From: Hormiphora californensis
Taxonomy: Eukaryota; Animalia; Ctenophora
Reading direction: 5' to 3'
DNA: 64,000 nucleotides
Assembly: GCA_020137815.1 (NCBI GenBank)
Contig: CM035360.1
Coordinates: forward strand, 992,001-1,056,000
The translations under genes were made by a program, and so were the position numbers. A model generated the notes under the pieces. That model was not told the origin of the DNA, searched no databases, and saw only the letters and a program-made list of their open reading frames with translations. Below are positions 400-64,000 of the stretch, one piece after another. Numbering within the stretch: the first letter of the stretch is position 1; the number at the start of each line of letters is the position of its first letter.

Positions 400-18643
<18,244 letters not shown>

Positions 18644-27743: not shown

Positions 27744-44792
<17,049 letters not shown>

Positions 44793-46714: not shown

Positions 46715-59021
<12,307 letters not shown>

Positions 59022-59398
59022 CTGAACAGAGAGAGGGGGAGCGGGGTTAGTAAGAGTTGGGGAAGGGGACCGGGGATTAGTTTAATGCGTTTTATTGGGA
59101 TTCTTGGGGATGAAATTGGCAGTAAACTGTGGGTCGTAGACAGACAGTGAGACAGATCTTTATAAAATAATGATAAAAAACGATAGAATAGATTAGAAAT
59201 ACGTTCATTGGTAAAAATGACTGTAAAAACAACTTTAAAAACAACTTTTGTCTCCCCCTTTTTGCTCCCAATCAATTCAAATAAAAAATTAAGATATTTT
59301 CAATATGGTGTAAAAATATTTAATTTTAAAAAACCCGATGACGAAGGAACGTAATGTAGAATTGTGTGAGACTGTTCGATCAACTCATTGATGATGAG

Positions 59399-62300
59399 TT
59401 AACCTCCAAGAAACGGACGGTTGGGTATGACATTTACAAACGGGTCTCCGCCACCACCCTGTTGAACTTGTTGAGCTGGAGCTTTCGCTTCTGCTTTCTT
59501 TTTCTCCTTTTTCTTCTTTGCTTTTTTGGCAGGTGGTTTTTCAGGAGCAGATTCTGGATTTCTATCAGCTGCTTTCTGCTTCTCCTTTATCTTCTTTGCT
59601 TGTTTGGGAACAGATTCCTCTTCGCACCGGTAGGTATTTTGATGTTGATCCTGCCTTTGCTGAGCTGGAGTTTTCTCTTCTACCTTCTTTTTCTCCTTTT
59701 TCTTCTTTGCTTTTTTGGGAGGTGGTTTTTCAGGAACATATTCATCTTGGCGCCGGTAGGTATTTCGCAGAGGATAATACCCAGCATTGTTCATAGGGCG
59801 TCGGTAGGTTTCTCGAGAGTGCGAACCATTTGCCCACAGTTCTTGGCGCTGTGGCTCTTGGCGTTGTAGGTCTTGGCGATTTGATTCTTGAAGATTCGGT
59901 CCTTGGCGCTGTAGGTCTTGGAGATTTGATTCTTGAAGACTCGGTCCTTGGCGTTGTGGCTCTTGGCGTTGTGGCTCTTGGCGTTGTGGCTCTTGGCGCT
60001 GTGGTTCTTGGTTAGTCGATTCTTTCTGTAGATTCTTACTATTCACTGGTGTGATCAGAGCAGCCATTATCTTATCCGCGATCAATGCCTTTCTATCCTC
60101 CTCAGACGGGCCAGACGGAGGTTTCACTGGTTTCGAATTGGTCGCTTTTGGTGAGCCAAGCGTGCTAGTCGGCTTGGATTCCAGGCAGTTAGTACGAAGT
60201 TGATTCTGTGGTTCTTGCTGGTTACTTTTCTCAACAGCTTCTTTCTCGGGATCCTGACTTTTGGCTGCTGGTTCTTTCCCAGAACCCGTACTTTTGGCTG
60301 CTGGACCTTTCCCAGAACCCGTACTTTTCCAAGCAGGTTCTTTCTCGGGACCCTTAATTTTCTCTGCAGGTCGTAGAAGGGAGGCCATTATCGCAGCTGA
60401 GATCAGCGCTTCTTGTTTTCCCGCAGATGAACCAGTCGGGGGTTTCACAGGTCTTTGTAGATGCGAACTGGTCACTTTTGGCAAACCAAGGGCACCACTT
60501 GCCTTGGGTTTAGAACCACTTTTCGATGCTCCAGCTGGTTCTTTCCCAGAACCCTTAGTTTTCACTGTTGATTCTATCTCAGAACCCTTGATTCCATTTT
60601 TCATAGGTCTTAGAAGGGCAGCCGTAATCTTATCGGGACCCTTACTAGCAGCTCCCGGTTCTTTTTCAGGACCCTTAGTTTTTGCTGCTTTCCCAGAATC
60701 CTTAATTTTCTTTGCAGGTTCTCTCCCAGATTTCGCTGCTGGTTCTTTCTTAGGACCCTTAGTTTTCGCTACTGGTTCTTTCTTAGGACCCTTACTTTTC
60801 TTCTCTATCGGTTTCTTTTTTACTGGTTTCAAGAGAGCAGCCATTATTTTAGCTGAGACTAGTGCCTTTCGTTCCTCTTCAGACGGCGGTTTCACTGGTT
60901 GCGAATTGGTCGCTTTTGGCATACCAAGTGTGCTAGTCGGCTTCGATTCAGGGCAGTTAGTTGGAAGTTGCTTCTTTATTGGTGAATTCTTAGCCTTAGG
61001 TAAAGTGGATTTCGGCTTGATTTTCCTCGGAGGCTTGGCTGTTTTGACAACGTCCGACTCAAGAGCTACAGATTTTGGCTTAAGGTTCGGAAAATCAGAG
61101 GACATGATCATTGGACATCGCTGTTTTTCTTGGGCTGATTCGGGCACATTATTTGCACAGGTACTCATGTGATGCCCAAGCTCAGAATCAGGGAAGAAGC
61201 AGTGACAGAACACACATGATTTCCAGTGCAACTCGACATTCTTTCTCCCCCTTTTTTCAACTTGATCCAAGACTATTGCCGGTACAAGAAACTCGCCGAA
61301 GTAAATCGGGGGAAACTCAAGATTTCGTGGCTTGTCACACTTTGGAAAAGGATATTTTACCCTTTCCTTTGTTTTGTCGTCTCGTGTTCTGTAAGTTGGA
61401 AGTGTGCTATAAATGCCTCCTCTTTCGATGCACACCCGATAATGATTGGGCATGTCCAAGAGATCAACTTCGAAATTACACAGCTCACAAACGAATTTTT
61501 CGTTATCATCATCATCATCATCTAATGGATCCTCTGCGGTAGAGTTCCCATGGATATCAATTTCGGGAAACTCCTTCGGGCTTATCAATCCAATGTGCTG
61601 AAAATTGAATGCCGGTTCCTTCGATCGTGTTGGCATGTTCTGTGACCGGGCAGCAGCCTCCGCTAGATTCCTTGCCACTCTGGCAGGCGTCAATGCCTTC
61701 AATTTGTTTCCACCGCTAACTGTAACAGGAACTTGTTCGTCCAACTCATTCAGCGCATCAATGGTACGGACCATGTTATCGGAATGTGCAACACCTTGAT
61801 TTAGCGCTTCTAGAACCTTCGTATTACCACAAACTATGTGAACAGTTCGAGGGAGAGTTTGACAAGTTGATAGAACCTGTTGAGCAGCCAGCAACACAGC
61901 ACACAAGTCAGCTCCAAACCTTCCGACACCTCGAGGAGCGAGTCTTTGCGAGAATGTTTTAGGTTTTTGACTGCCCTGCAGAATAACGCCCGCACAGCCA
62001 CCTTTGCAGTCGAGTACCATCGACCCCGAAGTAAAGATTACCACGTCCCGTGGGAAGGAAATATCAAGAAGTCGGTTGAAGGGGTTAACGTTGAAGTGAC
62101 GGAAATCAGCCCAAGGAGTGGAAGAATTCTTACATCTTCCACGTTTGTGGAATTCCATCATGTCACGATTAGACCACTTGAAATCCTTTTTACATCGGGT
62201 ACACTTGACAAGCCTCTCTTTGCAGAATTTGTAGAGATGATCGTCCATGAAGGAATATCTCACCATCTTGTAGCACATGGGGCATCGTTCTTTCAGATGC

Positions 62301-62659
62301 TGGTTAGAAATAAATCGGCCCAAATTCCGATACTGCTTTCTCTCGTTGTAAAGTTTGGAGAACCTATATCTCATAACACTCCTAGGGGTAAACTTCCTCC
62401 TCTTCTTCTTCCATCCAGGACATGTTCTGCCTTTGTGTTTTAGAATCAGTTTGTGACACCTCTTACAAGTTTCCGGATCATCCGATTTAGCAGAATCCCC
62501 ACCGGTCGTCCCAATAACTGCTGATGTTTTATCATCAACAAATTCTGCGTACTCAGGCGGATATTTCTTGGAGTGAAAGAATCTTCCCAAGGTCGGAAGT
62601 TGATCTTGACGATCACTATTCTCGAGGTCAACCTCAATGACCCACTCAAAATTTACCAT
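59399..62659 (-). CDS. 1086-aa intronless protein: C2HC/TRAF-like zinc fingers, degenerate RNase H domain, K/P-rich repetitive tail
   Basis: Uninterrupted ORF. VVIFTSGS...FSQRL...FGADLCAV...VHIVCGNTKVLEAL...ALNEL...ARNLA follows the non-LTR RNase HI pattern. Several CxxC...H...C motifs. Confidence 0.75.
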   Translation of the reverse strand: MVNFEWVIEVDLENSDRQDQLPTLGRFFHSKKYPPEYAEFVDDKTSAVIGTTGGDSAKSDDPETCKRCHKLILKHKGRTCPGWKKKRRKFTPRSVMRYRFSKLYNERKQYRNLGRFISNQHLKERCPMCYKMVRYSFMDDHLYKFCKERLVKCTRCKKDFKWSNRDMMEFHKRGRCKNSSTPWADFRHFNVNPFNRLLDISFPRDVVIFTSGSMVLDCKGGCAGVILQGSQKPKTFSQRLAPRGVGRFGADLCAVLLAAQQVLSTCQTLPRTVHIVCGNTKVLEALNQGVAHSDNMVRTIDALNELDEQVPVTVSGGNKLKALTPARVARNLAEAAARSQNMPTRSKEPAFNFQHIGLISPKEFPEIDIHGNSTAEDPLDDDDDDNEKFVCELCNFEVDLLDMPNHYRVCIERGGIYSTLPTYRTRDDKTKERVKYPFPKCDKPRNLEFPPIYFGEFLVPAIVLDQVEKRGRKNVELHWKSCVFCHCFFPDSELGHHMSTCANNVPESAQEKQRCPMIMSSDFPNLKPKSVALESDVVKTAKPPRKIKPKSTLPKAKNSPIKKQLPTNCPESKPTSTLGMPKATNSQPVKPPSEEERKALVSAKIMAALLKPVKKKPIEKKSKGPKKEPVAKTKGPKKEPAAKSGREPAKKIKDSGKAAKTKGPEKEPGAASKGPDKITAALLRPMKNGIKGSEIESTVKTKGSGKEPAGASKSGSKPKASGALGLPKVTSSHLQRPVKPPTGSSAGKQEALISAAIMASLLRPAEKIKGPEKEPAWKSTGSGKGPAAKSTGSGKEPAAKSQDPEKEAVEKSNQQEPQNQLRTNCLESKPTSTLGSPKATNSKPVKPPSGPSEEDRKALIADKIMAALITPVNSKNLQKESTNQEPQRQEPQRQEPQRQEPQRQGPSLQESNLQDLQRQGPNLQESNRQDLQRQEPQRQELWANGSHSRETYRRPMNNAGYYPLRNTYRRQDEYVPEKPPPKKAKKKKEKKKVEEKTPAQQRQDQHQNTYRCEEESVPKQAKKIKEKQKAADRNPESAPEKPPAKKAKKKKEKKKAEAKAPAQQVQQGGGGDPFVNVIPNRPFLGG

Positions 62660-63149
62660 GGTGAAGAAAAGTTGTAGTTGCTGGTGATAAGAGCGTATCT
62701 ATGGCATGTCCTAAAGTGGAGATAGGAGGTTGAGTTAGAAGTTGATATTGGGTTAAAATTGCAGGTTTTAGTCGACCAAAAAACAACTTTTAGAAAACCT
62801 TTCATGTAAGAAACAGTTACAGAAGTTAAAAGATAATCACATTTAGCTCAAATGTTTAGCTTCAAAAATCAAGAGATTTTTCGGATAAAAAATTGAAAAT
62901 TAAATGAATCAAATCCAAATCAAGGGTCCGCATCACTCACGTTGATAGGTATCACAGCGATCGCAGTTCAATGAACACCAAAGAAATCGATTACAAATGC
63001 AACCCGTGCTTTTCAGTCATTTTCATTTTCGCCACTCTCCTAAAAACTCAAAAGCAAGCATGATGACAAAACGCAGAAAAGATAAAGCATCTGGAATCTA
63101 ATTAAACATTGAAAGTCGAAAGATCGGATCCTTGTTCATCCCACATTAA

Positions 63150-63599
63150 AGGTTGACAAGATACCTAAAACTTTTCGTATATCGTCTTATTTTGATTTAT
63201 CATTAATTTTCAGCATTTTTTCAGAATTTTTTGTCGGCTAGAAATATGTGCAAAATAGGGGGTCTACTGACAAATGAGTGTGCCTTTTTTAAAATTGATA
63301 CCGTAATATCTCCGGTTCCTGATGAGATACAGAAACCGTTTTGGTAGCGTTGGAAAGGTCTTATTGAGATCAATCCAACGCAACCAAGATCAAGTCTTTA
63401 TCTTTTGAGGAACCGGAAACGTGAATTTCAATTTGCGAGACGCAGTGAGTGTGCCCAGTAAAACCAGTGCTGACAATATCGGTAGACCCCCTATTTCGAA
63501 TTTTTTTCTAGCCGACAAAAAATTCTGAAAAAATGCTGAAAATTAATGATAAATCAAAATAAGACGATATACGAAAAGTTTTAGGTATCTTGTCAACCT
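63150..63599. mobile_element. Kolobok-type (TTAA) MITE, 450 bp
   Basis: TTAA|AGGTTGACAAGATACC ... GGTATCTTGTCAACCT|TTAA. Confidence 0.88.
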
Positions 63600-63668
63600 T
63601 TAACAGATTACTTTTTAAACTTTTTAATTATAAAATAAAGCTACGTAGTTTTTTGCCGAAACTACTAA

Positions 63669-64000
63669 TTAGGAGCCATAAGCCATGGCACGGGAGCAAG
63701 CTGGCCAGTATAACCTCAAACTAAAAAGTTTTTGATAGAATGGGATATTGGCAAAAGATTCGTACGTGCAAGACAACGGATATTCATGTCCTGATTTATT
63801 TAATAGGACTGCGCTGACATAACTAACAAGGGATGGGCTATTTTCATGCGAAACGCAGAATGGTATATCTCTTTGACTAACGGCGTCAAAGGAAATATTA
63901 ACTTTTGGCAGTTGTTCCCAAGCTTCTACCGTAAAGGTCACTTTAACTGCGACACCACAAAATTCTGGAGGATTATATCCACAGTTTTTACATTCTGGAT
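63669..64000 (-). CDS. 3' end of an unidentified ORF running off the window
   Basis: The frame is open from the window edge to the stop at 63669; non-repetitive composition; no family recognised. Confidence 0.35.
   Translation of the reverse strand, partial: PECKNCGYNPPEFCGVAVKVTFTVEAWEQLPKVNISFDAVSQRDIPFCVSHENSPSLVSYVSAVLLNKSGHEYPLSCTYESFANIPFYQKLFSLRLYWPACSRAMAYGS

Follow-up and report, generated by a model that had tools for sequence, protein, structure and literature searches.

A probable host gene built on a catalytically dead LINE-type RNase H domain in the ctenophore Hormiphora californensis

Can a retrotransposon RNase H that has lost its catalytic residues be kept in a host gene, and what could it be kept for? 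The question is raised by a 64,000-nucleotide stretch of contig CM035360.1 of Hormiphora californensis (positions 992,001 to 1,056,000; hereafter the window), whose minus strand carries at 59399-62659 an open reading frame (ORF) of 1,086 codons with no internal stop. An earlier note on this DNA had described its product (P0001, 1,086 aa) as a domesticated, inactive RNase H of the non-LTR (long terminal repeat) retrotransposon type, i.e. that of long interspersed nuclear elements (LINEs), fused to zinc fingers. The best overall explanation, to which we give a probability of about 0.52, is that P0001 is encoded by a low-copy gene under selection, in which a dead RNase H, likely captured from a LINE, would act as a nucleic-acid binder that does not cut. 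Judged from the comparisons below, the conserved unit of the protein is a basic helix with C2HC/TRAF-like fingers and the dead RNase H domain.

The RNase H domain and its active site

Five panels of RNase H sequences were built, namely: LINE-type (19 sequences), phage/bacterial (48), RVT_3-type (23), giant-virus/eukaryote-like (48) and LTR-type (7); RNases H of DIRS and further retroelement types lie outside the panels. Panel labels were checked by Pfam on 12 members. The LINE panel consists of the 19 complete domains kept from 111 motif loci, of which 92 incomplete or broken ones were dropped. RVT_1 lies upstream in 5 of the 10 loci scanned, and the last catalytic column and the His loop of this panel are fixed by the motif used in the search for it.

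The LINE profile gives 21.0 bits for the P0001 domain and 16.0 bits for that of P0002, a related protein of Pleurobrachia bachei, while the other panels give at most 8.8 bits. In the chance control for the 21.0-bit match, the best score is 3.9 bits among 1,000 shuffled sequences (828 scored) and 0.4 bits for the reversed sequence. Aligned by hhalign, the two ctenophore domains match the LINE panel at 96.3% (E=1.5e-9, 131 columns), and the phage/bacterial, RVT_3-type, LTR and giant-virus/eukaryote-like panels at 20%, 18%, 1.2% and 0.8%, respectively. In eight subsamples of 8 sequences, the LINE panel stays at 88-97% and every other panel at or below 47%. Cellular RNase H1 and the RVT_3-type and LTR RNases H were rejected as sources of the domain on these hhalign values (20% or less vs. 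96% for LINE). A Pfam search with aa 180-360 alone returns RNase_H as the top match (E=0.078), pairwise BLAST relates the domain to E. coli RNase HI (E=4e-5), and one further source, the ESM Atlas, places it with RNase H/RVT_3 clusters at 0.92-0.93. When AlphaFold is supplied with the LINE alignment, the model has a predicted local distance difference test (pLDDT) score of 90, a Z of 16.8 to RNase H1 and a root-mean-square deviation of 2.3 over 125 residues from 3h08. By profile, alignment, tree and model we thus assign residues 205-340 (61640-62047) to the RNase H domains of LINE type; the non-LTR RNase H similarity previously noticed at about aa 205-335 holds, the LINE panel being the sole match among the five (96%).

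Other results set limits to this assignment. A maximum-likelihood tree of 58 rows groups the ctenophore pair with the LINE and LTR domains (100/94), with a shared stem of 1.43 and tips of 0.4-0.5, and leaves LINE and LTR origins of the pair unseparated. The alignment behind the confident model held RNase H sequences and is biased toward the fold, so that the model speaks for compatibility alone. Modelling, which the earlier note had proposed as a check, returns an RNase H with the LINE alignment, but the single-sequence model is poor (pLDDT 43): at low confidence, its element order is similar to the beta1-beta2-beta3-alphaA-beta4-alpha-alpha-beta5-alpha order of type 1 RNase H, and its Foldseek search was uninformative. 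No RNase H match came out of sequence searches against PDB, PHROGs, NCBIfam and phage genomes, and the PHROG and NCBIfam matches at E of about 0.01-0.1 were dismissed as chance. A one-sequence RT-linked profile (RT, reverse transcriptase) had no power.

The motifs that correspond to the active site are FTSGS at residue 209, ADLCA at 250, VCGN at 276 and ARNLA at 329. In the alignment with the 19 LINE domains, the catalytic columns are occupied by S211 (62027-62029; D in 19/19), D251 (61907-61909; E in 17/19), G278 (61826-61828; D in 19/19) and R330 (61670-61672; D in 19/19), so that the catalytic D/E/D/D reads S/D/G/R in P0001 and A/D/E/R in P0002. The WVPGH His loop that follows beta5 is replaced in both proteins. 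The earlier note had counted all four catalytic acids as lost; this applies to three (S211, G278 and R330), while the second site, changed from Glu to Asp, is still acidic (D251).

The two metals of E. coli RNase HI are both bound by Asp10, with Glu48 a further ligand of metal B and Asp134 of metal A, and the H124A substitution costs much of the activity (PMC8900815, in excerpt). Going by its residues, catalysis by the P0001 domain is very unlikely. The domain might still retain some slight nuclease or metal-binding activity by way of ligands that have moved (D217, D251 and conserved cysteines): both paralogues possess D217 and D251, and P0002 carries Glu in the third position. We regard this as extremely improbable: the ctenophore domains have Ser or Ala in place of Asp10, the residue that contacts both metals in the E. 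coli enzyme, Arg at the fourth site and either G or E at the variable third one, and they are devoid of the His loop. Because a non-acidic first site, the E-to-D change at the second, the D-to-R change at the fourth and the loss of the His loop are shared by P0001 and P0002, we infer that the decay of the active site is older than the duplication. On this evidence the proteins form a small family, in which the RNase H was already dead when the copies diverged.

Relatives and the choice between host gene and mobile element

Word-based searches found three homologous proteins, all of them P. bachei models in EukProt that bear only numeric names. P0002 (P001684, 877 aa; E=3e-58) is 33% identical to P0001 over aa 64-505 and 44% identical in the RNase H domain. 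P0005 and P0006 (P003882 and P005644) are 87-88% identical to P0002 and look like the two halves of a second copy or of a divergent allele. The P. bachei proteins have the same core as P0001 (helix, finger, dead RNase H, finger), but differ in their longer N-terminus, additional fingers and lack of a repeat tail. It should be noted that these searches are insensitive, as the one covering 30-596 aa missed P0005 and P0006, which are of that size; the lack of an RT-fused form among 7,994 scored candidates of 318-2,000 aa is accordingly weak evidence. No relatives were found in metagenome or viral contigs.

Contigs of organism B match the window at about 90-93% identity over the domain and at about 85-90% in pieces of the tail. 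Given these values, P0002 is a paralogue and not the orthologue of P0001. As to synteny, which was judged on contigs, none of those of organism B reaches the neighbouring gene. Separate contigs of runs X5, X6 and X7 match the window over only about 35 nt (61896-61931) and then diverge from it; translated by hand, their flanks continue the frame with sequences akin to helix A, the X6 flanks differing from P0002. These short pieces suggest two or three paralogues per genome.

Differences between the other samples and the window were collected over 61590-62110, and the figures that follow refer to 40 of the 79 found. They comprise 29 silent and 11 replacement changes at 128 silent and 388 replacement sites, i.e. 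a ratio of replacement to silent change (pN/pS) of 0.12 (p=3e-10). All 17 differences in aa 204-276 are silent, and none of the 40 alters any of the four catalytic-site residues. Run X5 alone contributes 13 silent and 5 replacement changes (p=3e-5; 18 of 22 differences on the contig). The same X5 contig also carries 58895-59554, including part of the neighbouring coiled-coil exon, and therefore comes from the same locus. Selection, another of the checks previously suggested, is thus visible as a silent excess. The summed depth of run X3 is 49-124 over the ORF and 41-100 over unique flanks, as compared to 8,700-346,000 over repeats; being a sum over contigs, it is not a copy number, which tempers its use as an argument for a low-copy gene.

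Components of a mobile element were sought in and around the ORF. There is no second copy of the ORF in the 64-kb window, and neither P0001 nor P0002 has a Pfam match to RVT_1. The one YxDD-like motif of the window lies at about 7400. P0001 likewise has no Pfam match to an apurinic-like (APE) or restriction-like (RLE) endonuclease, in agreement with the earlier description of an ORF devoid of both RT and endonuclease; the 204 residues that precede the RNase H domain are occupied by the basic helix and fingers. Between the ORF stop and the next exon there is no A-run of at least 6. A 13-nt direct repeat flanks the gene, at 59237 and 62779, and was rejected as a convincing target-site duplication (TSD): it is AT-rich, was chosen post hoc, has no adjoining A-tail and encloses the putative splice acceptor.

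Could the ORF then be accessory to a mobile element that is extinct or of low copy number, with a selection signal that dates from the time when the element replicated? The ORF is intronless, its domain is element-derived, there are several paralogues, and the 13-nt repeat could be counted on the same side. Opposed to this are the silent-biased variation at the same locus within organism A, the single-copy-like depth, the lack of an RT motif in or near the ORF and of an A-run before the next exon, and the defects of the repeat itself. We consider an accessory gene highly improbable, and a domesticated family with a dead LINE-type RNase H very probable on the sequence comparisons. The exaptation proposed in the earlier note is well supported by the missing RT, the depth and the pN/pS; the nuclear role that the note attached to it, as an RNA:DNA-hybrid or R-loop binder or a silencer of transposable elements, is a conjecture. 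On the side of TSDs and dispersal, one weak 13-nt repeat is seen.

Two observations on the same region may be added. Exactly three occurrences of the 12-mer AAAAACAACTTT are present in the window, all of them flanking the P0001 gene (59225-59249 and 62779-62791), and the 12-mer could be explained as a GU-rich motif for processing, as the relic of a TSD or by chance. Run X9, which is labelled as RNA, has almost no coverage of 56000-64000 and is uninformative on expression.

Proposed role and relation to known systems

A motif scan places fingers of the form C-x2-C-x(10-14)-H-x(3-4)-C at residues 126, 153, 391 and 482 of P0001, with a shorter candidate at residue 65. The first lies with the basic helix in aa 91-150 (62210-62389), where 36 of the 60 residues are identical in the P. 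bachei paralogue; the second (aa 153-177, 62129-62203) is poorly kept by the paralogue. The third (aa 391-410, 61430-61489) and fourth (aa 482-501, 61157-61216) were placed by their motif spacing. Searched whole against Pfam, P0001 has a CEP104 finger match alone, which is below threshold. The weak finger matches in the family are to zf-TRAF, CEP104_ZnF and XAF1, with zf-TRAF reaching 15-20 bits in the P. bachei paralogues vs. a cut-off of 27, and the aa 91-150 region matches the finger region of TRAF6 in sequence (E=0.01). The TRAF-like/C2HC fingers that the earlier note saw on both sides of the domain are therefore found by their spacing, with Pfam matches under the cut-off. RING and MATH domains had no match in the Pfam scans, and the family is thus not TRAF proper. 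A UBZ reading of the fingers was rejected, the key Asp of that motif being missing.

In the sequence of events that we propose, an I/Tad-like LINE RNase H would have been fused into a C2HC/TRAF-like finger gene in an ancestor of the pleurobrachiid ctenophores, after which its metal site would have decayed and the gene been duplicated. Selection would then have allowed hardly any change in helix A and in the loop once on the substrate side, three arginines (Arg243, Arg247 and Arg330) being shared, and this surface, along with the upstream basic helix, may grip a duplex (an RNA:DNA hybrid or a structured RNA) in a metal-independent manner. The fingers, and in P0001 also the repeat tail, may recruit protein partners, which would make the protein an adaptor or reader rather than an enzyme.

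The best-kept stretch between P0001 and the paralogue is aa 240-259 (61883-61942), which covers the loop before helix A and the start of that helix: 18 of its 20 residues are identical, as compared to 63/135 for the whole domain. The longest run of identity between the two is 13 residues (p=0.001). We take aa 240-259 to correspond to the substrate-facing loop and helix of RNase H structures. With Arg243, Arg247 and Arg330 common to both paralogues, a formerly acidic metal site has turned neutral to basic. E. coli RNase HI binds hybrid when no metal is present (PMC8042393, in excerpt). This metal-free binding, the conservation of the substrate-facing stretch and the shared arginines together favour a binder that does not cut. 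If the gene is indeed a domesticated one with a dead LINE RNase H, a nucleic-acid-binding adaptor is the reading that we moderately favour; over all readings, its chances appear about even.

Other features fit this role less well. Substrate-side positions that are conserved in LINEs are replaced (S/T by G246, N by A326 and Q by T280), and the WVPGH loop is lost, so that hybrid-specific binding is plausible and far from certain; a specificity of the P0001 domain for RNA:DNA hybrids is a guess from its sequence. Helix A is central in the fold, and part of its conservation is perhaps structural. The net charge of the domain, +4, is within the range of the LINE panel (-10 to +9). Every finger match, as mentioned, is below the Pfam cut-off.

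The serious rival is that, in the same domesticated gene, the dead RNase H has given up contact with nucleic acid and serves as a folded scaffold or a protein- or ligand-binding module inside a TRAF-like finger protein, e.g. in ubiquitin or ciliary signalling. The replaced substrate-side residues are in keeping with such a role, as are Cys218, Cys222 and Cys253, which both paralogues share and which are absent from the top residues of the LINE columns, and the families to which the weak finger matches point (zf-TRAF, CEP104_ZnF and XAF1) are protein-interaction families. Against this, the best-kept stretch is the one that we place at the substrate, both paralogues have the three arginines in that stretch or where the metal site used to be, and the neighbouring basic helix shows 60% conservation. 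We hold the scaffold role to be possible, and clearly less likely than nucleic-acid binding. Doubtful, and more specific, is a non-cutting sensor of RNA:DNA intermediates of reverse transcription or of R-loops that signals through the TRAF-like fingers; if true, it would be a case of integrated-decoy immunity against retroelements in early-branching animals, with paralogues that differ in their effector ends.

Among known systems, the closest is the ORF2 RNase H (PF00075) of the I/Tad group of non-LTR elements. The P0001 domain resembles it in the predicted fold, in the L-P-x4-F-x-A-[E/D] spacing before helix A and in having no basic protrusion, and the LINE panel is the best of the five. It differs in that P0001 is without three of the four acids, the WVPGH loop, RT and endonuclease, and in that its domain stands between C2HC/TRAF-like fingers in a protein of low copy and under selection. 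By these comparisons, the P0001 family is neither an active RNase H nor a LINE.

Inactive RNase H folds serve non-catalytic roles in Prp8, in the retroviral tether or connection and in the 'pseudo' RNase H of errantiviruses (PMC5603734, PMC13524379; both in part). Prp8 shares the inactive fold with P0001, but is pan-eukaryotic and spliceosomal; the retroviral tether and the errantivirus pseudo domains remain within the Pol of their elements, whereas P0001 would be a host gene of LINE type restricted to its lineage. It is to be placed with the domesticated retroelement genes, among which those derived from Metaviridae gag, integrase and protease in mammals are likewise intronless, low-copy and element-derived (PMC3670739, in part). 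The part captured in P0001 differs from these in being a LINE RNase H fused into a finger protein. Tandem arrays of the TRAFD1/XAF1/CEP104 type share with P0001 the C-x2-C-x11-H-x(3-4)-C spacing and the weak Pfam matches; they differ in that an RNase H fold lies between the P0001 fingers, RING and MATH are undetected and the matches fall below the cut-off. L1TD1, for its part, is derived from LINE-1 ORF1.

In the available part of a survey of transposable element-derived transcription factors that includes P. bachei, the term 'RNase' does not occur (PMC10027918); PMC5718144 and bioRxiv 10.1101/572842, also partial, served as background only. The literature searched, from which supplements and most subscription journals fall outside, holds no description of the P0001 family or of a host gene derived from the RNase H of a LINE. 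In the literature covered, domesticated retroelement genes come from LTR gag, integrase or protease, or from DNA transposases, and a host family whose core is a LINE RNase H, first disabled and afterwards retained, would extend these sources by a new part. Engineered dead RNase H is a reagent for R-loop mapping; P0001 would be a natural 'dead RNase H', and its aa 85-345 offer a small domain for asking what a pseudo-RNase H binds. The reach of the result is limited by a family range known from pleurobrachiid-like samples alone.

The repeat tail and the genomic neighbourhood

The remainder of P0001 is a Lys/Pro-rich repeat tail (aa 506-1086, 59402-61144) with three internally duplicated modules at residues 573, 717 and 829, four copies of the 5-aa RQEPQ and two of the 11-aa KKAKKKKEKKK. 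All the tail elements named in the earlier note are present, although the module at 717 is degenerate. At the DNA level the repeats are duplications of 96 nt (86%) and 87 nt (91%), along with 15-nt and 33-nt units. The tail is absent from the P. bachei paralogues, whose ends carry further fingers; the tail and its repeats resembling nuclear localization signals are therefore not defining for the family.

The X5 contig that also carries part of the neighbouring coiled-coil exon jumps from 61234 to 59554, i.e. from aa ~475 to the end of the tail. The skip drops finger 4, about 1.5 kb and one 189-nt repeat; other X5 contigs keep pieces of the tail. The skipping contig is either a tail-less haplotype or an assembly artefact. 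It could represent an allele in which the loss of finger 4 and the tail is tolerated, which would count against the favoured explanation. An in-frame skip of 84 nt (60646-60731) is present in X3 and X5.

Downstream of the ORF on the same strand, four exons (58695-59021, 58207-58369, 57659-57794 and 57283-57420) splice into an open coiled-coil frame. The first begins mid-codon and therefore needs a further coding exon upstream, and the ORF is probably nested in an intron of this coiled-coil gene. An acceptor-like site at 62711-62740, recognized by eye, has a CTAAC branch-like motif, a pyrimidine tract and an AG at 62712-62711, 52 nt upstream of the ATG, and an ATTAAA follows the stop by 75 nt. 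The single-exon ORF of the earlier note is intact, with its coding part in one exon; the acceptor-like site just upstream of the ATG qualifies the description, and we infer that it is used in cis or by spliced-leader trans-splicing. In H. californensis, 2,357 nested intronic genes, many of them parallel to the host gene, and common spliced-leader trans-splicing have been described (PMC8527503, in part), which makes the nesting of P0001 ordinary for the group.

The ORF might instead be a giant first or alternative exon of the coiled-coil gene. The two share a strand, an upstream exon of phase 1 is required by the coiled-coil exon at 59021, and a GT in that phase overlaps the last codon of the ORF (by eye). 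This arrangement is quite improbable, as the candidate donor GTTAAC is unlike the GTA present at all four donors of the host gene, the ORF is closed by a stop of its own with the ATTAAA 75 nt downstream, the P. bachei paralogue models have no coiled coil at their end, and same-strand nested genes are common in a pleurobrachiid (PMC8527503).

Several other features of the window were seen. On the plus strand, a single-exon frame of 607 codons (53451-55274) has a signal-peptide-like start and repeated Cys-rich units that are SRCR-like by eye; it has no Pfam match and is probably another nested gene, antisense to the coiled-coil gene. On the minus strand, 63669-63998 holds the open 3' end of another coding frame on the same strand as P0001, with unique-like depth and no Pfam match, and 14741-15535 a frame of 264 codons that by eye resembles a non-LTR element's C-terminal finger and restriction-like endonuclease and has no Pfam match at 0.01. 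The stretch at about 34750-37340 is a repeat array with long repetitive open frames on both strands. At 63146-63603 lies a very deeply covered element resembling a miniature inverted-repeat transposable element, whose inverted arms measure 125 nt (95%); one contig of X5 passes over 63099-63597, resembling the empty site of this element. Finally, a short intronic repeat at about 58100-58195 reaches extreme depth (in X5, bins of up to 3 million), is flanked by hundreds of different sequences and is present in organism B as well.

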